Source: Candidatus Hadarchaeota archaeon (GTDB taxonomy: Archaea > CAYQAE01 > CAYVLA01). From it: 64,000 nt of DNA. The translations under genes and the position numbers were made by a program. Within the stretch, counting starts at the first letter, position 1. Every line of letters starts with the position of its first letter. The notes under the pieces are model-generated. The model had not been told where the DNA came from, ran no database searches, and saw only the letters and a list, made by a program, of their open reading frames with translations. Of this stretch, positions 41,356-52,348 are shown piece by piece. The stretch covers positions 96,001-160,000 of the forward strand of contig CAZUNO010000003.1 in the NCBI GenBank assembly GCA_964621445.1. The letters run 5' to 3'.

Positions 41356-42231
41356 TTGGGCCTAAACTACCGGGAGGCAGCTTTGATAGATATTAGCAAT
41401 TGCCGACCTGATCCTGATTTCAACGGTAAAACCTATGAGAGAATCGCGAGAACACTAAACCTAGATACCTATGCTGATCACGAAGCCACTCAAATTCTCC
41501 ATTCCCTTATGATGGGCAGGGCAGAGGAATCCAGAAATGCCTTGGACCGGCTTGAAGAACTTGTAAACTCTAGACCTGCCTTCGTATTTGGGTGTGGACC
41601 TTCCCTGGATAACCATATCGCGGGATGCATTTCCTATCTGAGATCCGCAAAGGTGGTGACAATAGCCGCCGATGGTGCAGCATCTGCCCTCATTGACAGG
41701 GAGGTCCTGCCAGATATCGTGGTTACCGACCTGGATGGAATACCGTCCGATATTTCCCTGGCATCAAATAGGGGAACCATAGTACTACTACATGCACATG
41801 GTGATAACCTGAACTCGGTTCGGAGATGGCTGCCAAGAATCAACAACGTTATACCTGTGACCCAGACCGAACCGACGGACCTTGTTCACAACTTCGGAGG
41901 TTTCACGGATGGAGACAAATCAGTACATGTAGCCTGCCTGTTCGGTTGCTCGGCCTTGCTGCTTGCTGGAATGGACTTTGGAAACGAGGTGGGCCGATGG
42001 TCGTCTCCACAAGGCCCTCATGATGACCTTGGAATGAAACTGAAAAAGCTGGAAATTGGTAGTGAACTAACAGCCAGATGCATATCAGAATGTGGTGCAC
42101 CTGTGTATTCACTCCCACCCAGCCCATTCGACTGGGTTCCTGAAATTGAGTGCCAGAGACTTCCCAAAATTTTGGGCGCTAGGAGAACGAGAGATGAAAG
42201 ACAAGATGCTAATCGAAAAAATGATGCCTGA
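41356..42231 (+). CDS. mptE: 6-hydroxymethyl-7,8-dihydropterin pyrophosphokinase (DUF115)
   Basis: G.GPSL, IAADGA, VVTDLDG, HAHGDN, NFGGFTDGD and GMDFG. Confidence 0.88.
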   Translation: MGLNYREAALIDISNCRPDPDFNGKTYERIARTLNLDTYADHEATQILHSLMMGRAEESRNALDRLEELVNSRPAFVFGCGPSLDNHIAGCISYLRSAKVVTIAADGAASALIDREVLPDIVVTDLDGIPSDISLASNRGTIVLLHAHGDNLNSVRRWLPRINNVIPVTQTEPTDLVHNFGGFTDGDKSVHVACLFGCSALLLAGMDFGNEVGRWSSPQGPHDDLGMKLKKLEIGSELTARCISECGAPVYSLPPSPFDWVPEIECQRLPKILGARRTRDERQDANRKNDA

Positions 42232-42838
42232 AGGTTCGTTACAGGAGCTAATCCTGGTCTCAATATCACAGGCTGGGAAAACCAACCTAGCACCAATAGG
42301 CGTTTGGAGCGATGATAAAGGGCTCTTGGCAAGGATTGGCCGCGAAACCCAGAGCATGCGTAACTTGCTCAGCCGTCCTCAAGCCCGTTTTTGTGTGACC
42401 CTGAACCCGCTATTGATAGCCAAATCGGCGTTTAATCTTGATTGCCATGAATTTATCCTGGATGATAGCAGAGGACTCCCCCAGATATCCGGTTCCGAAG
42501 CCGATATTCTGGTGGAGATGAAGAGCCATAGGGATTTCGTGAAGAGGGACCTGCTTGGGAATTCGCCCTTTGTAGAGGTGCTCTTCGAGGTAAAGGAGGT
42601 CAAGGTAAAAGGATTGCCTCGTCCCCCATCTCGTTCTCTTTGTGCGACCATCGACTCCATCATAGGAATAACTAGGGCTAGGCTGGCTCTTGAAAGGGAA
42701 CTGGAAATATATGAACAGCTGGCTAGGCAGGTAAGAGAAAATATTTCAAAAGCAAGGAGGTTAGGAACAAACCAGGAAGAGGAGGAGGCCCTCCAGCTGT
42801 GCGAGGAAGAGCTGAAAGATATGACTAGAGAGGAGTGA
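42194..42838 (+). CDS. DUF447 family protein (H4MPT-cluster associated, FMN split barrel)
   Basis: NLAPIGV and S.RNL motifs; position between mptE and the DHPS-like gene; ATG 42194 after AGGAG. Confidence 0.65.
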   Translation: MKDKMLIEKMMPEGSLQELILVSISQAGKTNLAPIGVWSDDKGLLARIGRETQSMRNLLSRPQARFCVTLNPLLIAKSAFNLDCHEFILDDSRGLPQISGSEADILVEMKSHRDFVKRDLLGNSPFVEVLFEVKEVKVKGLPRPPSRSLCATIDSIIGITRARLALERELEIYEQLARQVRENISKARRLGTNQEEEEALQLCEEELKDMTREE

Positions 42839-44400
42839 GCATGAACATGCTCACTGATGAGGGGGGGAAACCGCTCATAATAACCGGAAGGATCTGCTAT
42901 CCAAGTATAAGTAAACTCACGCGCGAATTTGAAATCTCCATTTATGAGGTACCGATCGACGTCGCGGCCTTACTCACGGCAAATGATGTCATCGATGCCA
43001 TGAAGGATATTGACCTGGAGGAGATAAGCTACGTCATGCTACCGGGTATGTTCAGAGGAGACATAGACGCCCTCCAGGAGCGCTTTCAGATACCGTTCTT
43101 TCTAGGTCCTACTAACTTCGTTGATATACCTCTAGTAGTAAGCGAAACCTCGATCGCCGAGCTATCAAAGACGGTCCCCGCCGATAGGCAAATAGCAGAC
43201 CATAAGCGGAAAGAGGTTCTTGGCTTCTACAGAGATGCACGCCGCAGGGAAAACCAATGGCAAGGGGAACCTCTCATTATTGGTCATGATGATAATGGGG
43301 TATCCATAGGGAGAGGGTGCCCACCTGCACTGGTTGCCGAGGTCGTTGATGCACCAAGGAAGGATGTCAAGGACATCCTAAAGGAATGCAGGCACTACCT
43401 TGAATCCGGAGCAGATATCATAGATATGGGGATGATTCCTCGGGAGGATAACTCGAAATGGATCACATCAACAATACCCGAGATTAAGGCCGAAATCCAG
43501 GCGGCCATCAGTATAGACACAATGTCAGAGAAAGAGATCTTGGCTGCGAACGATCACCAAGCGGATCTTATTCTAAGTATCTGTGGAAGCACCATTGATT
43601 TAGTCCCCAGCATCGACCTGCCCTTTGTGCTAGTTCCCGTTGATGATCCCCAAAGCAAACCCCCTGATTCCAGCCAAGCCAGAGTAGAGAAGCTAAAATC
43701 CTACCTAAAACTCATCGGTAACCGGAATGTAATCCTTGACCCTTTACTGGCACCAATAGGAACTGGATTCTATTCATCCATTAAATCGTATTTAAAACTG
43801 GAGGAGGAACTCCCGAAATTTCCATCATTAATGGGGATAGGAAATGTTACCGAATTAATCGATGTTGATTCCATTGGCATCAACGCAGTGCTCGCTGCTT
43901 TGGCGCTCAAGGCAAACACGTCATTGATCTTAACAACGGAAAACAGCCAAAAATGTAGAAACTCGTTATCGGAGCTCAGCACAGCTTTAGCGATGATCTA
44001 TTACTCACAACAGAAAAAAATAGTCCCAAAAAACATGGGCCTTAACCTCCTTCGCTACAAGGAAAAGAGGAAAAGGATTGATCCCACACCTCTAGCAAAA
44101 CCTGAAATCAAGGCAGGAAAAGGAAAGCAAAAAACGGATATTGATAGGAATATAAAGTTCCACATTTTACTAAGGAACAAAAGAATTCATGTACTGAGGG
44201 AGGGAGAGGGAGATAAGATCCATCTTTCGGGGAATTCCGCCATGGACATCTGCTTTGAGCTGGATAGGCAAGAACTATTGCCGGGACCAGCCCATTCCGT
44301 GTATTTAGGAAGGGAGCTGGCAAAGGCAGAGACCGCGCTAAAGACCGGCCGTAGCTACATCCAGGACCAGAACCTATTCACTGAGGTTGATGAGTCTTGA
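42835..44400 (+). CDS. Dihydropteroate-synthase-like protein (TIGR00284-like, methanopterin pathway)
   Basis: ITGR, PIDVAALL, AEVVDA, GADIIDMG, ISIDT, GNVTELIDVDS.GIN and HSVYLGRELAKAE..YIQD. Confidence 0.88.
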   Translation: MSMNMLTDEGGKPLIITGRICYPSISKLTREFEISIYEVPIDVAALLTANDVIDAMKDIDLEEISYVMLPGMFRGDIDALQERFQIPFFLGPTNFVDIPLVVSETSIAELSKTVPADRQIADHKRKEVLGFYRDARRRENQWQGEPLIIGHDDNGVSIGRGCPPALVAEVVDAPRKDVKDILKECRHYLESGADIIDMGMIPREDNSKWITSTIPEIKAEIQAAISIDTMSEKEILAANDHQADLILSICGSTIDLVPSIDLPFVLVPVDDPQSKPPDSSQARVEKLKSYLKLIGNRNVILDPLLAPIGTGFYSSIKSYLKLEEELPKFPSLMGIGNVTELIDVDSIGINAVLAALALKANTSLILTTENSQKCRNSLSELSTALAMIYYSQQKKIVPKNMGLNLLRYKEKRKRIDPTPLAKPEIKAGKGKQKTDIDRNIKFHILLRNKRIHVLREGEGDKIHLSGNSAMDICFELDRQELLPGPAHSVYLGRELAKAETALKTGRSYIQDQNLFTEVDES

Positions 44401-45392
44401 AAACTGGAGTTCGGGTTAAAACCGGTCCAAGACTCCATTTCGGCTTGTTAGACCTATCCGGTGACATGGGCAGGGTGGACGGTGGAATCGGCATGGCCCT
44501 TCAGGAACCTTCTCTGGTCATCCAGGGTAGGAGATCGAGTTCCACGAAAAGCAACAAGTTCTCTAAACTGGTTGAGTATGCGGTTGACGCTCTAAACAAG
44601 CATTATGATAAAAATTACAGCCTCGATATCCAGGTAGATCGATCTTACCCCCAGCACGTGGGACTGGGATCCACCACCCAGATCCTCCTCTCAATCTCAT
44701 ACATCTACAACTTAATTTTCGGACGAACACATAACTCGCGAGAAATGGCCAATTTGCTAGGGCGAGGTGGAACATCCGGGATTGGGGTAGCATCCTTTCG
44801 ATCAGGAGGCTTCATACTTGATGCAGGTCATACCTTTGGTCATAACGGTGAAAAGAATACATTCCTGCCGTCGAGGGTTTCTAATTGTCCTCCTGCACCC
44901 GTTCTCTTTAGGCATCGCATTGCATCTGACTGGGTCGTTGATCTACTCGTACCCCTTGATTCCCCAGGCCTCTCCGGTAGACCTGAAGCCGAATTCTTTC
45001 AGAAAAAATGCCCAATTCCTCGGCCAGAAACCGATAGGATATCTAGAATAGTATTATCAATTATCCTTCCAAGCGTTATTTCATCTGATATTAAACGCTT
45101 TTCTAAAGGCATTAACCTACTTACAACGTTGGGATTCAAGTATCTAGAGATACAAAACCAATCTGAATACGTAAGGAATCTAATTTCCGATATTAAACTG
45201 GTTACTAAAAATCAAGCAGCAGTTGGTTTAAGTTCATTTGGTCCAACCGTTTTTGTTATAAGTAAAAATAATTTAAGAATGAAATTCATTGATAAATTAA
45301 AGGATCACATATCGTATATACAATCACAACATGGAGTTACTTACTACGTAACAAGGTGTAGAAATATTGGGGCTACTGTAAATGTATGGTAG
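44397..45392 (+). CDS. mptG: Beta-ribofuranosylaminobenzene 5'-phosphate (RFAP) synthase
   Basis: RLHFGLLDL.G..GRVDGGIG, HVGLGSTTQ, GRGGTSGIG, GGFILDAGH and GLSSFGP. Confidence 0.92.
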   Translation: MKTGVRVKTGPRLHFGLLDLSGDMGRVDGGIGMALQEPSLVIQGRRSSSTKSNKFSKLVEYAVDALNKHYDKNYSLDIQVDRSYPQHVGLGSTTQILLSISYIYNLIFGRTHNSREMANLLGRGGTSGIGVASFRSGGFILDAGHTFGHNGEKNTFLPSRVSNCPPAPVLFRHRIASDWVVDLLVPLDSPGLSGRPEAEFFQKKCPIPRPETDRISRIVLSIILPSVISSDIKRFSKGINLLTTLGFKYLEIQNQSEYVRNLISDIKLVTKNQAAVGLSSFGPTVFVISKNNLRMKFIDKLKDHISYIQSQHGVTYYVTRCRNIGATVNVW

Positions 45393-45401
45393 TTATCTTC
45401 A

Positions 45402-45475
45402 TTGTTTGATTGTTTGACAAAGGAAACAGAACAACCTGAAAGAGGGGTACTATTGAGTTTTGTTTGATCGTTTGA
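45402..45475 (+). repeat. Two copies of the 16-mer TTGTTTGATYGTTTGA (45402-45417, 45460-45475)
   Basis: Read directly from the sequence in the intergenic gap between convergent mptG and the AAA+ gene. Confidence 0.75.
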
Positions 45476-45580
45476 ATGATTATAGTTGTAGCTCCGATGG
45501 ATATCTTGGAAAAGAGCATTTTCCCACCTGGTTTAGTTTTTTGTTTGTGTATGTTTGTTCAAATGTTCAAATGGATTGGG

Positions 45581-46681
45581 TTATCCCTTTTTGAAGGCTC
45601 TGGTAATATCTTTGGAGAGAGTGTACTTGTTTTTTCTCCCGACTTTTTCCACTTGAACTGCTCCCATGTTACGTAACCTGTTTAGTTGGGTGTTTATGCT
45701 ACCGTAGTTGTCAACGTCGAGTTCATCTAGCACATCCTTTATGAAGGCACCGTCGGGATAGTCAACAAGGGCCTGGATTATCTCACTTTGTTGTGGTGAG
45801 TATCTTTCTAGGATCTGTTCTCTCATTGGGCCCGTGTCCTTCTTCTTTCCTAGGTAATCAGCGACCAGATCGGCATCTATAACATCTTTCCCTGACCTAA
45901 TAGTCTGGAAGACTAATTGAGCTGCTATGGTTAGAGTATCCCTGGGTACCCCGTTTGAGTGTGCATGGATCTGTTCTATCGCCTCGTCTGTGAAGGGAAG
46001 GCCATCCTCTACTTCCTTCTCACCCCTGGCCCATGCTATTCTCCTGTAGATAAGTTCCTTTGTTTCTTCTAGGTCGAATGCCTCGAGGTAGATACGCATC
46101 TTTATTCGATCCTCGAGCGGAGGAACTTTCTTCCTGATGGTGTCTAGAGCATCTTCAGTTCCCGCGAACACTATGGACCCGCCGGCATCGTGTAGGGTTC
46201 TCACCCATCGGGCAGCTGGTTCGGATATTTCCTGGAATTCGTCGATTAAGATAACGATGTTTTCTTGTTGTAGGTGTTGTGTTATGTTTGTTGCAATTCT
46301 GTCTAGCTCTAGGGCCCTGTTTCTGGAAAAGATGGAGGATAGTCTTTCCAGGATGGAGGGTGAGTGAACGTTTTGATGTATGTGCCGGAGCATTTCGTCG
46401 TGGGTAAGGGGTTTTTCTATTAGGATTACCTTTCCGCCATTTTCCTTGCGAAGCATGTAGTGAAGCTTCTTTAGAAATGCGCTTTTACCATATCCTATGG
46501 GGGAAAGAATGGATACCATGCCCTGGTTATGTTGAAGCATGAAGGTTGCTTGGTTAAGTTCCTCTTCGTATCTGGGAACATAAACGAATTCATTGGGTAA
46601 AGGAGTATTCAGAATAAAGGGTTCTCTTCCGTGAGTCCAGCCTTGTTTGTTATAGAACTCCTCTGTTATGTTGGTGTTCAA
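45581..46681 (-). CDS. AAA+ ATPase (ExeA/Cdc6-like) with C-terminal winged-helix domain
   Basis: Walker A SPIGYGKS, Walker B ILIDEFQ, IVFAG, EDR finger, FTDEAIEQI..SNGVPR lid; C-terminal QSEIIQAL..QLNRLRNMGAV..GRKNKYTL. Confidence 0.85.
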   Translation of the reverse strand: MNTNITEEFYNKQGWTHGREPFILNTPLPNEFVYVPRYEEELNQATFMLQHNQGMVSILSPIGYGKSAFLKKLHYMLRKENGGKVILIEKPLTHDEMLRHIHQNVHSPSILERLSSIFSRNRALELDRIATNITQHLQQENIVILIDEFQEISEPAARWVRTLHDAGGSIVFAGTEDALDTIRKKVPPLEDRIKMRIYLEAFDLEETKELIYRRIAWARGEKEVEDGLPFTDEAIEQIHAHSNGVPRDTLTIAAQLVFQTIRSGKDVIDADLVADYLGKKKDTGPMREQILERYSPQQSEIIQALVDYPDGAFIKDVLDELDVDNYGSINTQLNRLRNMGAVQVEKVGRKNKYTLSKDITRAFKKG

Positions 46682-46699
46682 TTTCTACCACTGAGGTGC

Positions 46700-47220
46700 G
46701 TGCCTTAAGGATCGTCTTGTGCGGGTAAACCTAAACATCACTCTAACGTTTGCTGAACATAGATAACGTACGGCTTCCAATAATTGATAGGCAAATCTCG
46801 TTCTAATAAAGCTTTTTGTTTTATTTGTTGGCCCATGTTTTAGTTGTTGTTGCGCTCTGATCAGAAGTTGTATGAATAGTTGGGTTTGTTGTTATTGTTG
46901 GGGTGCTTTGGTAGGCAATTTTGATAGGCCTGGATATATCCAAAAGCAGATGATAATGATTTCGTTTGGTTTGTTGGTCTATTGTGTTCCTTCCGTTATG
47001 CTTGAATGTTTGGTGGGGTTTAACTCAGAGACCGTTGTTGGTCTTGTTGGAGTTAGTTATTGCTTACGTTAGGAGTTTGTATATGTTTGTTATTGATACG
47101 TTTACCTGTTAGCTGAACCGTTTATTGATGCGGTATAGTTGTTAGGCAGGTTTGAATTTGTTTGTTTTGGTGTTATTGGCGGTGGATAATGGCTGTTTAA
47201 TTTGTTGATTTGTTATTAAG
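46700..47220. other. Non-coding G/T-rich, C-depleted low-complexity tract with many TGTT/TGTTTG motifs
   Basis: For example, 47161-47220 has 17 G and 2 C; no credible ORF. Confidence 0.7.
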
Positions 47221-47226
47221 CGTATG

Positions 47227-48156
47227 TTATGCTTTAGCTCGACCTATTAAATGGCGGGAAATTGCGCCAGTTACGTCAACTCCGGATGCCCTAGCGGTTG
47301 CTTCAAATGATGGAGAAGGGTTAACTTCAAGTAGCTTATGCCCTTCGGAAGTATCAAGAATGTCTACGCCGGCAATATCTAGATTAAGTACTTCTGAAGC
47401 CTTAATAGCGTCTTCAGCCATCTCAGCGGGTATATATTGTTTATCCAGCGCCTCTGCGGTGGCACCAAGGGATATATTATGCTTGTATATGGAGCCCTGT
47501 CGCTTTATTGCAGCGATGATTTCATTACCAACAAGCAGTATTCTAATATCATATGAGGAAGGAATGTAGGGCTGGATCATGGCGGGTTGTTTGTTCATAT
47601 GAAAGAGGGAAAGGGTGTCTCCTAAACAAACATCATCCTTAGCTAACATAACACCAATCCCACCAGCGCTTTGAAGGGCCTTGATTACACAGGGGGAATG
47701 GATAGTTGAGTTTGTTATATGTATGTTACGTATGGGGTTTGGTGATACGAAAAAGGGAACTATTGGTAAATCATTTTTAGATAGAATGGAGAGACAAAGA
47801 TGCTTCCTGGCGCTTAGATATATGGAACGCGGATGGTTAATAACGGGGACTTGTTGAGAGGCAATCCACATGGTCTCAAAAAAGAATTGGAAACATCTAG
47901 GACCGTATTCCTCAAGCCATGAAGATATGGGCCTTTGGAAAATTAGATCAAAGGAGGAAAATGACATGTTTTCAACTTGGCCGTAAGCTAGGTCATTTAG
48001 GTCTGGAGAAGGGCCTGAACCGGTTTGAGGATGATTGATTAGGGAGAGCCAGGTGTCATTTGGACTGAAAACATCAAATTCGATGCCCAGGGAATTGAAT
48101 TTTGGGGCAAAAAGGGATACTTCCTTTTTGTTTTTTGGAAAGTAGGCTATCCTCAT
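47227..48156 (-). CDS. RimK-family ATP-grasp glutamate ligase (MptN/CofF-like)
   Basis: VIN, VIK..GGIGV, IQPYI, DIRILLVG, NISLGA, AGVDIL and LEVNPSP; cofactor-cluster context. Confidence 0.85.
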   Translation of the reverse strand: MRIAYFPKNKKEVSLFAPKFNSLGIEFDVFSPNDTWLSLINHPQTGSGPSPDLNDLAYGQVENMSFSSFDLIFQRPISSWLEEYGPRCFQFFFETMWIASQQVPVINHPRSIYLSARKHLCLSILSKNDLPIVPFFVSPNPIRNIHITNSTIHSPCVIKALQSAGGIGVMLAKDDVCLGDTLSLFHMNKQPAMIQPYIPSSYDIRILLVGNEIIAAIKRQGSIYKHNISLGATAEALDKQYIPAEMAEDAIKASEVLNLDIAGVDILDTSEGHKLLEVNPSPSFEATARASGVDVTGAISRHLIGRAKA

Positions 48157-48159
48157 TGG

Positions 48160-48745
48160 AATTCCCTTTGATTTTATGTTATGACTTGTAGCATAACAAG
48201 AAGGGGGGGAAAAGTTATATGTGTTGTTATGATTAGAATAATGGAGTAAGAAAGGGGTTGGCTGATAACGGCAAGGTTAGAGATTTGGGTTAATAACAAT
48301 AGGGGGTAAATGGGGAAATTACAAATAAATATTAATAAGATTGATTCCAAAAGTTATTAATCATTTTATTCAGCATTGGAATTAGAAGCCAGAAATGCGT
48401 TCATGAAGATATGAGATGACATTAATCCTGTATCTGGGACGTTGGAGATTATCATTTGCTAAATAAAGAAATCTAAGGGCCTGGCCTGCCGGTTACGGGC
48501 ATTAATTGTAAATCATAATAAGTCTCAAAAAGGGGGGTGGAAACGGAAAAAAAGAAAGAGGCATCTCGAAAAGGGGCAAAAGGGGGGTGCTAGTGTAACT
48601 ATATATGAATTAGGGCTGCAATAAGGTTTAATTAAAAAAATGGACAGCTATGGGGGCATAAGAGGAGTAATGGGAAGCAAAAAGGGGTTTGATGGGTAAT
48701 AAGATGGGTGTTAGGAGGGGGTCAAGGATGCAGGATTATTTCTAA
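48160..48745. other. Non-coding AT-rich, purine-rich tract with G-strings and a direct repeat CAAAA(A)GGGGGGTG
   Basis: 48661-48720 has 27 G and 1 C; repeat copies at about 48526 and 48577; no ORF of 60 aa or more. Confidence 0.7.
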
Positions 48746-48748
48746 TAC

Positions 48749-49456
48749 TCAAATTAGGGTTTCTTTGAAACGATCAACCCTATGTGCCGTTATTTTACCG
48801 TTACGCCGGTCGTTAGATTGACAGGCAGCACCTCTGATACCTATAACATCTGGTGATAATGTTTTGAGTTGTTTAGAGTGATTCAGATTTAGGGAGCCGG
48901 CCAGGGCGGAGATCATATCCATTTCCTGGAGGTGGGAGATAAATGAACAGAGTTCATCATAAGCCATGAAGTCAAACAAACATCTACCATCTTTGTTTAT
49001 TGTGTCGATAAGGACCCCATCAGCTCCAGATTGGGATGCCGCCTGGAGTAGGACCAGGGGGGAAATGGACCCAACAAGTTCCCAGTCGGCGTAGCCACAG
49101 GCTATTACCTTAATCGAGGGATCGATTGATTTAACGATATCAACGGAGGGGGTGAGTAGGGCTTGGGCCTCGGATTGGGTTTTTGTACCAAAGAGACCAA
49201 GCTTAACGTAATCCGGTGAAAGATATGCCGCCCCGGCGGCTGCCAAGCTGACGGTTCCGGGAAGATTTGGGAGATCACCTATAGCACAACTGGTTTCACT
49301 TGTTCCGTTTACGGCATCGATAATCCTAGAGGCCTTCTGGGGAGTTGGGGCTCCAAGAGAGCCCTCCGCGGGATTCTTTATGTCAACAATGTCGGCGCCA
49401 CCCGAGATGGCTTCTGGCACCTCTTCCTCGTCTACAACGCTGACTAGTAACCTCAT
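48749..49456 (-). CDS. mfnB: (5-formylfuran-3-yl)methyl phosphate synthase
   Basis: LLVSV..EA..GGADIVDIKNPAEGSLGA, S.AIGD, YVKLG, LIDT..KDG, LAGSL and IGIRGAAC. Confidence 0.93.
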   Translation of the reverse strand: MRLLVSVVDEEEVPEAISGGADIVDIKNPAEGSLGAPTPQKASRIIDAVNGTSETSCAIGDLPNLPGTVSLAAAGAAYLSPDYVKLGLFGTKTQSEAQALLTPSVDIVKSIDPSIKVIACGYADWELVGSISPLVLLQAASQSGADGVLIDTINKDGRCLFDFMAYDELCSFISHLQEMDMISALAGSLNLNHSKQLKTLSPDVIGIRGAACQSNDRRNGKITAHRVDRFKETLI

Positions 49457-50127
49457 GATGTGATGGTAGAGGATTCGCTATAAATATGAGTTCCATACGT
49501 TCGGCCGTTAACCAAAAGCTGATGAATTCGTTTTGGGTGGTGACCATTTACAATCCATGCCTCAAGTCCATGTTTCCTAAGAATAATCGGGAGATATTCG
49601 TCTACCAGGGATTGACGGTGACCGGAGAGGTCCTTTGCTGTGAGGGATTTGATGATCTCTTTGGATTTTTGATTCGTCAGCCCATCAACAGATTTTAATA
49701 GAAGCAATTTGGAGTTTAGGGTATTGGCTAAATAAGCGGAGATTGTATCGGAGGTCACTTCCCAGCTTTGGGGAAGATCTGATTCCTTGATAGGCGAGTA
49801 GGGAAGAAAAATGGGGATCGGTTTGCCGGGTTCCGGCTTTGGCTGCGTCGATAGGCTAAAGTAATTCGGCCAGCTAGATTCAATACAATAAGCGTTGAGG
49901 TGCATGGCAAGGATTGCCAGCCAGTGAGAACCTCTATTCCCAATACTGTAGTTATGCCCCAGTTTTCTGATTAGATCTGCATAGGAGCCCCCACCCGCTA
50001 CAGCCGCAATATCTTTTATCTTATGGACATTCCAAAGCTCGCCGACTATTTCTTCCAGTATCTCACTTGCGTCATTTATGAGACTTCCACCGATCTTCAC
50101 GACCCACATTACTTGGCCATCCTCCAT
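49453..50127 (-). CDS. mfnE: Amino-acid-kinase-family protein, [5-(aminomethyl)furan-3-yl]methyl phosphate kinase
   Basis: VVKIGGSL, GGG.YADLIR, HWLAILAM, LPQSWEVTSDTI and KSVDG; lies between mfnF and mfnB. Confidence 0.85.
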   Translation of the reverse strand: MEDGQVMWVVKIGGSLINDASEILEEIVGELWNVHKIKDIAAVAGGGSYADLIRKLGHNYSIGNRGSHWLAILAMHLNAYCIESSWPNYFSLSTQPKPEPGKPIPIFLPYSPIKESDLPQSWEVTSDTISAYLANTLNSKLLLLKSVDGLTNQKSKEIIKSLTAKDLSGHRQSLVDEYLPIILRKHGLEAWIVNGHHPKRIHQLLVNGRTYGTHIYSESSTITS

Positions 50128-51170
50128 GCCTCAATCGAAAGTGAAACCGCTGGAGCTGTAGTGCAAACCTCCTTTTCCAGGCCGGCAACATCCATGTTGA
50201 GTTCCTGGTTCACGAAATTTTGGAAGGGGATAGGTGTTTTTAATCCGGTCTTTAGGGCGGCTGGTTTGGCAAGACATTCAGAGCCGCTTCCCGCGATAAT
50301 ACAGGGAATCTCTGTCCCGAGTTTGGCTCTGTTGAGAACAAAGCCGATGGACTTCTCCACCCTTTCAATCTGTCTATTGCGAACCGAGACGGCGATTTCT
50401 CGGATCTGGTTCCCATTAAGCTCTTGAAGGTCCGAGCACACGACTCTGGCCAGTCTTCTCATGCAGGCGGTAAGGTTTGTTCCCTTGCCATCAGCTGTAG
50501 GTCCGCCGTAATCACCTGGACCTAACAGACCGAGAATTATGTTGACATCGCCCATAGTTGCAAATTCCTCTGAAGCGCAGGGGATTTCACTACCACCCAA
50601 ATTCACCGAGTCCACTACTGTGGCTACGTTGGTCCTAGTCGAACCGGTGTATACCAGTTCCCGATTCTTGAGTCTACCTCTGTCCGTTGGGTCATTGACA
50701 GCTGGACGTCCAGATAGGATGGGGATTATATCGGTGGTGGTTGATCCCGAATCTATTAGCAAGGACTGGGAGTGAGCTCTCCCTATCAGCAAGGATGTTG
50801 GGACCCAATTTGCTGCGGCGACTTCCAATGGGCGGGATATTGCTGTTTTGCCCTTAACCACCGATCCCGAGTTTAGGATGATTCTGGTTTCTGGCTCCTG
50901 TTCTAGGAGACTAGAAAGAACGAATTCTACTCCCTGCTTTTTTGATTGGAAGCAATCCGCGAGCTCCGCCGTCATGGTGGCCAAGGTTAGATGTGGGACA
51001 GCCTGGTAGGGCTCCAATAGCTTCTGAACTAATTTGGGGAAAGAGCGGTAGTTCTTCCAAAATGGATGGTAGATTGATTTTAGGTCACGGATTTCGAGCC
51101 CCTCTCCCCCATTTGAGGTTACTGCAATTTTGGTGTTTGCACCGCCAATATCTAACCCGATTGCTAGCAT
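50109..51170 (-). CDS. mfnF: Hydantoinase-A-family H4MPT-linked C1 protein (methanofuran APMF-Glu synthase)
   Basis: GLDIGGANTK, TMTAELADCF, VAAANW, DSGSTTTDIIP, ELVYTG.RT and E.FAT.GD. Confidence 0.88.
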   Translation of the reverse strand: MLAIGLDIGGANTKIAVTSNGGEGLEIRDLKSIYHPFWKNYRSFPKLVQKLLEPYQAVPHLTLATMTAELADCFQSKKQGVEFVLSSLLEQEPETRIILNSGSVVKGKTAISRPLEVAAANWVPTSLLIGRAHSQSLLIDSGSTTTDIIPILSGRPAVNDPTDRGRLKNRELVYTGSTRTNVATVVDSVNLGGSEIPCASEEFATMGDVNIILGLLGPGDYGGPTADGKGTNLTACMRRLARVVCSDLQELNGNQIREIAVSVRNRQIERVEKSIGFVLNRAKLGTEIPCIIAGSGSECLAKPAALKTGLKTPIPFQNFVNQELNMDVAGLEKEVCTTAPAVSLSIEAWRMAK

Positions 51171-52348
51171 TTGATGTGCCTCTCTGATAGCCATTTCTTT
51201 ACACGGGCAAATCGTTGAGGTATCTCCATGGAGTCCTTGGCCCAAACACAGGTCAATACCTTGCTTTTTCCCTTCATATAGTAGGGACCCACAGGAAATG
51301 GTGGGGAAACTATCATCTTACTTTGAAACATCTTCTGGTGGATTGATTGGTCAAATGGGACGGTCCGGATTAAGGGTAGTATGGACCATTTTGAAAAGCC
51401 CTCAGTATCAACAGCGGTTTTCTCCCCGGTGATGATCGATGCCAATCCTTTCTGGATTATCTTTTCTATACCTATACATGATGTGGTCATCCTGGGATTT
51501 ATCTCCATAAAATGAGCCTTGCCCTGACTATATACAAAGTCTAGGGTCATCAGGCCCTTAAGCTTGCTCTTTGTTACCATGGAGGAGATATCATCCCAAA
51601 GCCCACGAACGGGAAGGGGGAATGGGCTGGAACCACCCAGGTATTCAAGCTCTTGAGAAGCCTGGATGGCTTGGGTGTTAATTGCAAGAGGAATTACCTC
51701 GCTTTCCATGGCCATGAAGGTCGCACTGAGGTGGCGTCCCTGCTTGAATTCCTGAATAATGGCAGAATTCCACCCGGAGCTCCTTAATTTTGCAGCTGCG
51801 CGTCTGCAATCGCTATTGCTTCTAACTATGGTTGTGCCCTCGCATCCAGCCCCGTCAGGGGGTTTTATAACCAGGGGTAAACCCATTTTGGGGATTGCCC
51901 TGGATATTTCCTTGGTAGTAGATTCAGTGGTTAAGGTTCTGGGCACGGACAGGAAATTGCATTGCTGGTCGACTAATTCAAATGAAGAGGGCTTATTCGC
52001 CAACCGGGAAACCGTTCCCGAGGGGCAGCTCAACAATTCCGTTTCCTGCTCAATGGCACGAGTGAGCTCGAGGAGTTTTCCGCCTGATTCTGGAGCAATT
52101 ATGAAAGCGGCGTCGAAGCTAGATGAAGTCTCTGGGAGCTCTTCCATTGGGTTTTCCCGGGGAAATACCAGATCATAGATCGGTAAAAAACCGGCCTCTC
52201 TCTTTAAACTCTTATTAACTGCGGCGGTAACCTCGTGACCATCCTTTTTGAAGGATTCACATAACGTCCGGAGCATGCCGAACCCCTGTGGCAGAATGCT
52301 TCTCGGCCCGCCCTTGAGTGATGTCCATTCCGACAGGAGGAGCTTCAT
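51164..52348 (-). CDS. mfnD: Tyramine--L-glutamate ligase (ATP-grasp)
   Basis: G.GML..L, IIAPESGG.L, KP.DGAGCEG and EINPR.TTS; first gene of the mfn operon. Confidence 0.82.
   Translation of the reverse strand: MKLLLSEWTSLKGGPRSILPQGFGMLRTLCESFKKDGHEVTAAVNKSLKREAGFLPIYDLVFPRENPMEELPETSSSFDAAFIIAPESGGKLLELTRAIEQETELLSCPSGTVSRLANKPSSFELVDQQCNFLSVPRTLTTESTTKEISRAIPKMGLPLVIKPPDGAGCEGTTIVRSNSDCRRAAAKLRSSGWNSAIIQEFKQGRHLSATFMAMESEVIPLAINTQAIQASQELEYLGGSSPFPLPVRGLWDDISSMVTKSKLKGLMTLDFVYSQGKAHFMEINPRMTTSCIGIEKIIQKGLASIITGEKTAVDTEGFSKWSILPLIRTVPFDQSIHQKMFQSKMIVSPPFPVGPYYMKGKSKVLTCVWAKDSMEIPQRFARVKKWLSERHIKC

Follow-up and report, generated by a model that had tools for sequence, protein, structure and literature searches.

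An AT-rich island at a conserved strand-asymmetry switch as a candidate archaeal replication origin, beside a gene for an ATPase of Orc1/Cdc6-like fold

Introduction

Can a chromosomal replication origin be recognised in an archaeon when no cdc6 gene stands beside it? Nearly all mapped archaeal origins adjoin a cdc6-type initiator gene, according to the portion of a review on which we draw (PMC4010727). Here we address the question for an AT-rich island at positions 45393-48748 of a 64,000-nt stretch of archaeal DNA (the window). The window corresponds to positions 96001-160000 of contig C3 (202 kb) of G000, a 3.21-Mb archaeal metagenome-assembled genome (MAG) in 89 contigs, 96% complete and 4.2% contaminated. 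The island interrupts a run of cofactor biosynthesis genes and encodes a 366-aa ATPase between non-coding blocks. We find that it adjoins the strongest strand-asymmetry switch among the large contigs of the genome, that the switch and the gene order recur in relatives, and that one of the blocks carries three conserved repeat boxes. On this evidence the island is, more probably than not, the main chromosomal replication origin of the archaeal family to which G000 belongs. We consider it possible, although doubtful on balance, that the ATPase acts there.

Results

A strong skew switch at the edge of the island

The first-pass annotation of the window had proposed a candidate origin here, for which a skew extremum near 45.4-48.7 kb would count as support. 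We calculated the keto skew (G+T-A-C) cumulatively along C3 and found its contig-wide minimum at window position 45354, the strongest switch of 25 contigs. The cumulative curve falls steadily from base 1 of the contig to C3:141354 (window 45354) and then rises to the contig end, which places the global minimum 39 nt before the island. The T-A cumulative minimum lies at window 45364 and the minimum calculated from third codon positions only at window 45173, so that all three fall inside the 3' half of the adjacent mptG-like gene. The keto minimum stayed at 45354 when the island was masked. GC skew alone was noisier, with its global minimum at C3:110255 and a second low at ~138 kb. In 20-kb bins of C3, 7/7 bins to the left of the switch were negative and 3/3 to the right were positive. 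A change-point statistic calculated for the 25 contigs of at least 40 kb reached 20.4 on C3 (at C3:141500), 9.9 on the next contig, C22, and at most 6.0 on the remaining 23; most of these contigs hold a single skew sign throughout.

Genes on both strands share the skew. Relative to the plus strand, the third-codon keto skew of plus- and minus-strand genes, respectively, was -0.052 and -0.038 to the left of the switch, and +0.107 and +0.132 to its right. Plus and minus genes also agreed in sign on 14/14 other large contigs tested. Since 50.4% of genes lie on the keto-rich strand and 49.6% on the keto-poor strand, gene orientation is not the cause of the skew. The sign shared by the two gene sets, together with one strong switch, indicates a replication-type strand asymmetry in G000, a property that is uncommon in archaea according to the accessible text of a 2026 survey (PMC12999951).

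Weak switches of the opposite, terminus type (positive to negative) were seen on C5 at ~9-10 kb and on C15 at ~62-65 kb, the latter near a low-GC stretch at 55-61 kb. Both are candidate termination zones.

Layout and base composition of the island

To the left of the island lie plus-strand methanopterin-type biosynthesis genes, of which the last is an mptG-like beta-RFA-P synthase gene (44397-45392). To the right, minus-strand methanofuran-type biosynthesis genes run from MfnB (48749-49456) onward. The main features between them are:

44901..45392, plus strand: AT-rich 3' half of the mptG-like (beta-RFA-P synthase) gene, identified by NF040726/TIGR00144
45393..45580, no strand: block 1, 188 nt, separating the stop codons of the mptG-like and ATPase genes, which converge; carries three boxes
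45581..46681, minus strand: gene for the 366-aa AAA_22 and winged-helix ATPase, of Orc1/Cdc6-like fold
46682..47226, no strand: block 2, 545 nt, G+T-rich, C-poor spacer (keto skew 0.34)
47227..48156, minus strand: RimK/MptN-like ATP-grasp gene inside the island (Pfam RimK 1.9e-28; NF040720 MptN 103 bits, below the cut-off of 350)
48157..48748, no strand: block 3, 592 nt, purine-rich (64% A+G), C-poor, with many G-runs (GC skew 0.49)

The description of about 1.3 kb of non-coding DNA in three blocks was borne out, as the part free of open reading frames (ORFs) totals 1325 nt (188 + 545 + 592). The spot counts first given for C-depletion proved exact (17 G:2 C at 47161-47220; 27 G:1 C at 48661-48720), and the reported rise in AT content in the 3' half of mptG corresponds to a fall in GC from 48.8% in the 5' half to 36.2% in the 3' half. 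Blocks 1, 2 and 3 contain 34.6, 38.2 and 37.3% GC, against ~51% for the genome. The low GC is confined to this part of the window: the four 1-kb bins at 45-49 kb have 38-43% GC and the remaining 60 bins 46-59%. The asymmetry is also extreme on the scale of the genome, where the 99.9th percentile of |GC skew| in 200-nt intervals is 0.47. Intervals with |GC skew| of at least 0.6 form just six segments in the 3.21 Mb, two of which lie in block 3. Twelve ORF-free gaps are at least 450 nt long and below 42% GC; among them keto skew peaks in block 2 (0.343) and GC skew in block 3 (0.491). The asymmetry of these two blocks may be either selected or a mutational footprint.

Block 2 is rich in TTGTT, the motif with which the core of the boxes described below begins, and which is over-represented in the orientation of boxes A1 and A2. 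We counted 16, 11 and 11 copies in the block in three genomes, where mononucleotide shuffles gave 4.0, 1.8 and 2.1. One further conserved element lies in this block:

46802..46816, minus strand: conserved 15-mer, BRE/TATA-like (B recognition element and TATA box), ~120 nt upstream of the ATPase start, in 3/3 genomes that have that part of block 2

Read against the archaeal promoter consensus, this 15-mer would be the promoter of the ATPase gene. Block 3 contains a conserved AT-rich core (~48316-48375) among other conserved AT-rich boxes. In G000 the two least stable 60-mers of the region are this core and the 3' end of mptG (45252-45311), and the least stable 60-mers of a related metagenome contig, L029, lie likewise in the mptG 3' end and the block 3 core. 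The 3' half of the mptG-like gene is a candidate unwinding zone.

Searches for other kinds of element gave little. No Rfam family reached threshold in 44500-49500 (two chance-level matches), no tRNA gene was found in the window, and repeat searches, including Tandem Repeats Finder, returned short families only. G-quadruplex motifs with loops of up to 12 nt numbered one in the island, with ~0.8 expected, and two and four in relatives, all on the plus strand; with counts near expectation in G000, an enrichment of the island in such motifs was not convincing. The cofactor enzymes encoded at window 41356-52348 score mostly far below the methanogen equivalog cut-offs (MptN 103/350, MfnE 117/300, MfnD 72/400), and the methanopterin and methanofuran pathway enzymes of the window appear from these scores to be divergent versions.

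Conservation of the switch and the gene order in relatives

The order mptG, ATPase gene, mptN-like gene, mfnB recurs in G002 (contig C27) and in the 99.7-kb contig L029. Since gene order across the junction is identical in three independent assemblies, C3 is not a chimeric join. The skew sign flips at the syntenic locus in four related assemblies (L029, G002, G001 and, weakly, G003). In L029, 10/10 1-kb bins on the left are negative, the keto minimum lies 380 nt before the ATPase stop codon, and the keto skew on the right is 0.14-0.28 over the next 4 kb and ~+0.05 over the following 4 kb. Four bins to the left of the locus in G002:C27 range from -0.05 to -0.13, and the sign changes at the ATPase gene. 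The two sides of the locus lie on separate contigs in G001: the left contig C104 (122 kb), which starts 171 nt upstream of the ATPase gene, has the predicted sign in 21/24 5-kb bins, and the right contig C38, which starts 174 nt before mfnB, has the opposite, predicted sign in 10/11 bins. Both contigs of G003 end at the island and show the predicted signs weakly (-0.01, +0.03).

The short-read assemblies of G001 and G003 break in the island, in blocks 2 and 3 and the mptG 3' end (G001: start of C104 and start of C38; G003: start of C203 and end of C105), and the island seems hard to assemble from short reads. The ATPase gene is apparently "missing" from G003 because that assembly breaks here. 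Blocks 2 and 3 align poorly across genomes, with mean column identities of 48% and 62%.

These comparisons bear on the view that the locus has no replication function at all. The island would then be an expression island, with long untranslated regions (UTRs) or unstructured non-coding RNAs, or an old foreign low-GC insertion, and the switch would stem from an old inversion breakpoint or a chimeric contig. The last of these is contradicted by the gene order shared by three independent assemblies. In favour of this view stand the breaks inside the island in two relatives' assemblies, the low GC of the island relative to the genome, and the fast divergence of blocks 2 and 3: in a related strain from another study they differ by 4.8% and 8-10%, against as little as 2% in the ATPase gene (2.0-3.5%; other pieces 4.5-10%). 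Against it, the window has no tRNA gene and no Rfam family reached threshold. As for an old inversion, the switch is kept among relatives whose neighbouring proteins are just 42-63% identical, a distance over which the third-codon skew would probably have re-equilibrated. We regard an absence of replication function as very improbable.

Three conserved boxes in block 1

Alignment of block 1 across genomes revealed three boxes:

45404..45427, plus strand: box A1, 24 nt, core GTTTGAnnGTTTGA; matched by one relaxed pattern in 4/4 genomes
45462..45485, plus strand: box A2, direct repeat of A1; A1-A2 start-to-start distances of 58, 59, 58 and 60 nt in four genomes
45549..45572, minus strand: box A3, inverted copy, its end 8 nt short of the ATPase stop codon; inverted in 4/4 genomes

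Each box is ~24 nt long and consists of the core GTTTGAnnGTTTGA, four bases and a GGATA-like tail. In 4/4 genomes block 1 holds exactly three matches to the relaxed pattern, two direct copies and one inverted copy that comes just after the ATPase stop codon. The locus therefore has the conserved repeats expected of an archaeal origin. The uniqueness of the boxes rests on counts of the exact and the relaxed core. The exact core GTTTGAnnGTTTGA occurs twice in the 3.21 Mb of G000, both strands counted, and both copies are in block 1 (A1 and A2); TTTGAnnnTTTGA sites number 12 genome-wide, three of them in block 1. In the related strain, block 1 has at least eight differing positions and at least two insertions or deletions, and among those listed the conserved core positions are spared.

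The sole other site in the genome with adjacent TTTGAnnnTTTGA matches is a tandem triple of an 8-nt unit starting TTTGACTA (G000:C2:165239-165259).

An initiator-type fold in the 366-aa ATPase

The ATPase had been described as having the AAA+ and winged helix-turn-helix architecture of Orc1/Cdc6 with a more ExeA-like sequence, and our searches agree on each point. It matches Pfam AAA_22 with 42.1 bits (cut-off 27) and carries a C-terminal winged helix (Penicillinase_R, residues 295-354, 25.1 bits, cut-off 22.6). Its best NCBIfam match is the ExeA-like TIGR03015 (46.6 bits, 2.8e-12), far under the cut-off of 324.5. These scores place it in the AAA_22 clade, and they suggest that it is not an equivalog of the ExeA/PEP-CTERM ATPase. 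The Orc1/Cdc6 model TIGR02928 is absent from its NCBIfam matches, and a genome search with that model gave no match at C3:141584-142681. A sequence search of solved structures returned nothing significant (best E 0.079), and BLASTP against the genome's own Cdc6 gave E 0.025. Judged by these searches, the ATPase is not a member of the Orc1/Cdc6 family.

We further characterized the structural relatedness of the protein with an AlphaFold model built from 15 sequences (mean predicted local distance difference test score, pLDDT, 83.8). The top 17 Foldseek matches listed are all archaeal Orc1/Cdc6 or eukaryotic ORC/Cdc6 structures (E ~1e-11). The model aligns over its full length to 1w5s, 2v1u and 2qby, and its comparison with four full-length archaeal Orc chains by VIA-align gave Z scores of 20.4, 19.6, 19.5 and 18.8, over 315-326 residues. 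For the ATPase part, 1fnn scored Z 18.9, TnsC 18.3 and MuB 17.2; RFC and RuvB scored ~15.8. Given this modest margin, the fold shows an initiator- or loader-type AAA+ protein with a winged helix and does not show its function. Comparison with the canonical Orc1/Cdc6 profile by hhalign gave a probability of 92.4% (E 5e-7), collinear over 289 columns, at a structure-based identity to archaeal Orc1/Cdc6 of 12-17%. Walker A (G63/G65/K66), Walker B (D147/E148) and GxPR (P246/R247) residues are invariant in the 15 sequences. The model thus shows the Orc1/Cdc6-type architecture: the AAA+ base and lid come first, then the winged helix at the C-terminus, and the nucleotide-binding motifs are intact. 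Orc1/Cdc6 proteins carry an initiator-specific helical insert between strands 2 and 3 of the AAA+ core. In the island ATPase the region between the strands at 84-88 and 142-146 is modelled as three helices (94-105, 110-118 and 122-139), with pLDDT down to 58, and these helices may correspond to that insert.

The ATPase is under strong constraint. It is 72-83% identical across relatives, compared with 42-63% for mptG, mptN and mfnB and 84-85% for canonical Cdc6. Besides the window's own, 14 clusters contain close homologues (at least 65% identity). A profile search yielded 109 clusters at E of 1e-30 or below, of which ~45 are full-length (roughly 350-390 aa), and in a protein atlas the look-alike clusters are mainly archaeal, for example from Aenigmatarchaeota and Woesearchaeota.

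Two other roles for the ATPase were considered and rejected. Models of defence systems gave weak partial matches only (best 8.6e-6). A match to PHROG 296, "DNA transposition protein" (MuB-like; 3.7e-12), raised the possibility of a mobile element; we saw neither a transposase nor a tRNA gene next to the locus, and all relatives keep it in synteny.

A possible paralogue is encoded at G000:C1:165124-166401 on the minus strand. This 425-aa AAA+ protein has a MarR-type winged helix and a weak ORC-CDC6-like Pfam match, and it aligns with residues 169-358 of the island ATPase at 28% identity; G001, G002 and G003 have similar genes.

Canonical cdc6 and distant homologues of the ATPase

The genome also encodes a canonical Orc1/Cdc6. 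The search with TIGR02928 gave five matches at E of 0.001 or below, of which one, on contig C13 (C13:38000-39247), lies above the cut-off; no DnaA was found in G000. A canonical cdc6 elsewhere could in principle account for all of the skew and so remove the case for the island, as the first-pass annotation recognised. This is not what we found: the skew of C13 has a uniform sign, and the gene has no long gap beside it, as one neighbour overlaps it (~0 nt gap) and the other is 67 nt away. The gaps upstream of cdc6 are 188 nt in G001 and 62 nt in G002. There is nothing origin-like beside cdc6 in the archaeal family of G000, G001 and G002. The absence of a switch or long gap at cdc6 on C13, taken with the keto-skew minimum beside the island, supports the proposal of a candidate origin at the island.

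To get a broader picture of the ATPase we turned to more distant archaea. A homologue is present in single copy in 33/42 genomes of one small-genome archaeal phylum, including 9/10 high-quality ones. Homologues in the three distant genomes compared are 28-31% identical to the window's ATPase and have the same two domains. In 6/33 genomes of this phylum the homologue shares a contig with a high-scoring cdc6, at distances of 8.3, 9.0, 9.2, 10.3, 14.1 and 31.8 kb. The other 27/33 are uninformative on linkage (separate contigs, or one of the two genes missing), because the assemblies consist of 30-310 contigs. In G009, from another family, 17.7 kb separate the homologue from cdc6; the cumulative keto and GC minima adjoin the canonical cdc6 and a stretch of 27.6% GC and are away from the homologue. 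Shared ancestry may be behind part of the linkage between homologue and cdc6. At loci L009 and L010 (G020 and G032) the homologue is followed directly by a gene for a DUF92 integral membrane protein, and in a third small-genome archaeon by an adenylate-kinase-like gene.

These data raise the question of whether the ATPase is a bystander. The island would then be an origin run by canonical Orc1/Cdc6 alone. The ATPase might, for instance, control transcription of the cofactor genes or help to organise the chromosome, and blocks 2 and 3 would be spacers of the promoter or UTR type that owe their composition to mutation bias near the origin. That the protein falls outside the Orc1/Cdc6 family, and that its homologue in small-genome archaea lies 8-32 kb from cdc6 and off the skew minimum, is what such a bystander would lead one to expect. 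The conserved TATA-like elements that precede the minus-strand genes in blocks 2 and 3 agree with a spacer role, but the boxes lie at the 3' ends of converging genes and hence not in a promoter position. It is also difficult to see a bystander in a protein that is far more conserved than its neighbours and that keeps its exact position in every relative with assembled sequence here. The literature points both ways: as far as the available portion of one review goes, haloarchaeal autonomously replicating sequence (ARS) activity does not need linkage in cis between cdc6 and the origin, whereas the archaeal origins characterised up to 2014 all depend on an adjacent initiator gene (PMC4010727). 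On the whole we think a bystander ATPase unlikely.

Origin or terminus

By the usual convention the leading strand is G- and T-rich, so that a switch from negative to positive skew marks an origin. That the island should be an origin rather than a terminus is inferred from this usual polarity. Skew polarity is not universal in archaea, however, and the same switch could therefore be a terminus. The island would in that case be a site of fork convergence, perhaps a dif-like or fork-arrest site, with a G+T-poor leading strand, and the boxes would be the sites of a protein, such as the ATPase, that works in termination, resolution or segregation. A fixed terminus would account just as well for a sharp, conserved change of sign, and both genes flanking block 1 converge on that block. 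A mapped archaeal origin with reversed mutational polarity is described in the accessible text of the 2026 survey (PMC12999951).

Gene orientation gives a mixed picture. On C3 the genes slightly favour the strand that would be leading if the island were a terminus (71/123 on the left, 26/41 on the right), but genome-wide the orientation is neutral (50.4%), and 4/4 large translation and transcription operons (the uL2 cluster, the rpoB/elongation-factor cluster, the initiation-factor gene pair and the uL11 cluster) lie on the keto-rich strand, which hints at the usual polarity. Three further points argue against a terminus. In G009 the region adjacent to cdc6 is a skew minimum, like the island. 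Three 24-nt boxes spread over 170 nt are unlike the single 28-bp site of dif. An ATPase of Orc fold and low-stability DNA are features of the origin type. We therefore rate a terminus as improbable, and favour an origin because of the inverted arrangement of the repeats, the low-stability DNA, the Orc-fold neighbour and the sharp switch.

Discussion

If the island is an origin, forks would leave ~window 45.2-45.6 kb in both directions, and over evolution the plus strand would become G+T-poor leftward and G+T-rich rightward. Boxes A1, A2 and the inverted A3 would be the recognition sites of an initiator, and the duplex would open in the AT-rich DNA beside them, in the mptG-like 3' end and block 1. 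The ATPase is the best candidate for a box-binding protein, since it is encoded in cis, has a winged helix on an initiator- or loader-type AAA+ core and is under strong constraint; it would most likely bind the boxes through the winged helix, and it may spread directionally over the TTGTT-rich, strand-asymmetric block 2. TTGTT in a single orientation, together with one strand almost devoid of C in blocks 2 and 3, could provide a directional track free of secondary structure, for a filament or for exposure of a single strand. The ATPase may be an origin-specific initiator, loader or regulator, acting alone or with the canonical Orc1/Cdc6 encoded elsewhere. Its adjacency, fold and conservation and the unique, conserved boxes make a role at the island origin plausible, if short of probable. 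The fullest version of this model, in which the ATPase is the cognate initiator that recognises the GTTTGAnnGTTTGA boxes, polymerises along the C-depleted TTGTT tract and opens the DNA or recruits MCM, and so represents a third kind of archaeal initiator after Orc1/Cdc6 and WhiP, is one that we offer tentatively and think rather unlikely.

A number of observations weigh against the island as the main origin. To our knowledge the boxes do not resemble the consensus of the origin recognition box (ORB) or mini-ORB, and no canonical cdc6 is adjacent to the island. The ATPase homologue of small-genome archaea lies kilobases from cdc6 and away from the origin, and no long gap flanks it. G020 has no clear skew switch at cdc6, so that the polarity control worked in one of two genomes. 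In the higher-GC genome G002 the stability minima are shallower and partly elsewhere, and there is no clearly conserved, strongly AT-rich unwinding element. Two of three thermosome genes lie on the keto-poor strand (one of three on the keto-rich strand), and the uS2 and 16S loci are ambiguous, being on contigs with near-zero skew. A mapped origin of Haloferax volcanii coincides with a local peak in the GC skew of third codon positions and non-coding DNA, as reported in the part of the survey open to us (PMC12999951). The genome is a fragmented MAG (89 contigs, 4.2% contamination), so that skew curves are per contig and not for a whole chromosome. Finally, a second, weaker switch of the origin type occurs at 21.5 kb on C22 (C22:21401-21520) without the features of the island. 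C22 is a 47-kb contig of ~56% GC, and the switch falls where genes diverge across a 118-nt gap; neither an AT-rich island nor an Orc-like gene was seen there. Chance, a contaminant contig or a second origin could each explain it.

Tools for finding origins lean on adjacency to orc1/cdc6, and in this genome that rule would point to the wrong place. If the ATPase does act at the origin, the locus represents a new replicator-initiator pairing, and a function follows for a gene found once per genome in most members of at least one phylum of small-genome archaea. In one such phylum the family is near-universal, single-copy and encoded 8-32 kb from the main cdc6, and it could represent there a replication factor that has been overlooked. 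In the open literature on archaeal origins we found no description of it at an origin (subscription-only papers lay outside the search). The clear skew of G000, independent of gene orientation, makes this genome useful for the question of why most archaea lack skews, which the accessible text of the 2026 survey raises (PMC12999951). Although the organism is uncultured, these claims are open to work with recombinant proteins and synthetic DNA.

Comparison with known systems

At the level of the protein, the best full-length structural matches are archaeal Orc1/Cdc6 (PDB 1w5s, 1w5t, 2v1u, 2qby and 1fnn), which have the same order of AAA+ base, lid and C-terminal winged helix. Unlike them, the island ATPase has no TIGR02928 match, and its core scores best with models of the AAA_22/ExeA type. 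The best sequence-family matches are to the AAA_22 clade (ExeA TIGR03015, MuB, TnsC and TniB; PDB 8xvc and 7plh), of which TnsC and MuB reach Z 17-18 on the ATPase part. Both the TnsC and the MuB entries matched show filaments on DNA, and by analogy the ATPase might spread over block 2 in this way. Unlike ExeA, MuB, TnsC and TniB, the island ATPase is single-copy and syntenic, has no transposase or secretion genes nearby, and ends in a C-terminal winged helix of a form not found in those proteins.

At the level of the DNA, bacterial oriC offers a loose analogy. There, DnaA boxes and DnaA-trios lie beside a skew switch. The island likewise has few specific boxes beside a long array of a short motif in one orientation, although neither its motifs nor its protein family are related to the bacterial ones. 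Canonical archaeal oriC-cdc6 units (Pyrococcus oriC, Sulfolobus oriC1, haloarchaeal oriC1) have these features in common with the island: low-GC non-coding DNA, short direct and inverted repeats, an extremum of cumulative skew and an adjacent AAA+/winged-helix gene. The island differs from them in that its Orc1/Cdc6 gene is on another contig, its repeat core is GTTTGAnnGTTTGA, and its conserved layout includes two strand-asymmetric, C-depleted spacers of 0.5-0.6 kb. Its layout nevertheless fits the general definition of an archaeal replicator-initiator unit, as given in the available part of the review (PMC4010727), save that a gene other than cdc6 adjoins it and that its repeats cannot be recognised as ORBs; it is a predicted unit.

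The nearest precedent is Sulfolobus oriC3 with WhiP. As described in the same accessible portion (PMC4010727), oriC3 resembles the island in that its cognate neighbouring initiator gene is not cdc6 and encodes a protein with winged-helix domains; oriC3 has neither ORB nor mini-ORB elements, and its capture from an extrachromosomal element has been proposed. It is an experimentally mapped origin, one of three in Sulfolobus, whereas the island is predicted and lies at a single dominant skew switch. The two neighbouring proteins also differ in design: WhiP is related to Cdt1 and has no AAA+ module, whereas the island protein combines an AAA+ ATPase with one winged helix.

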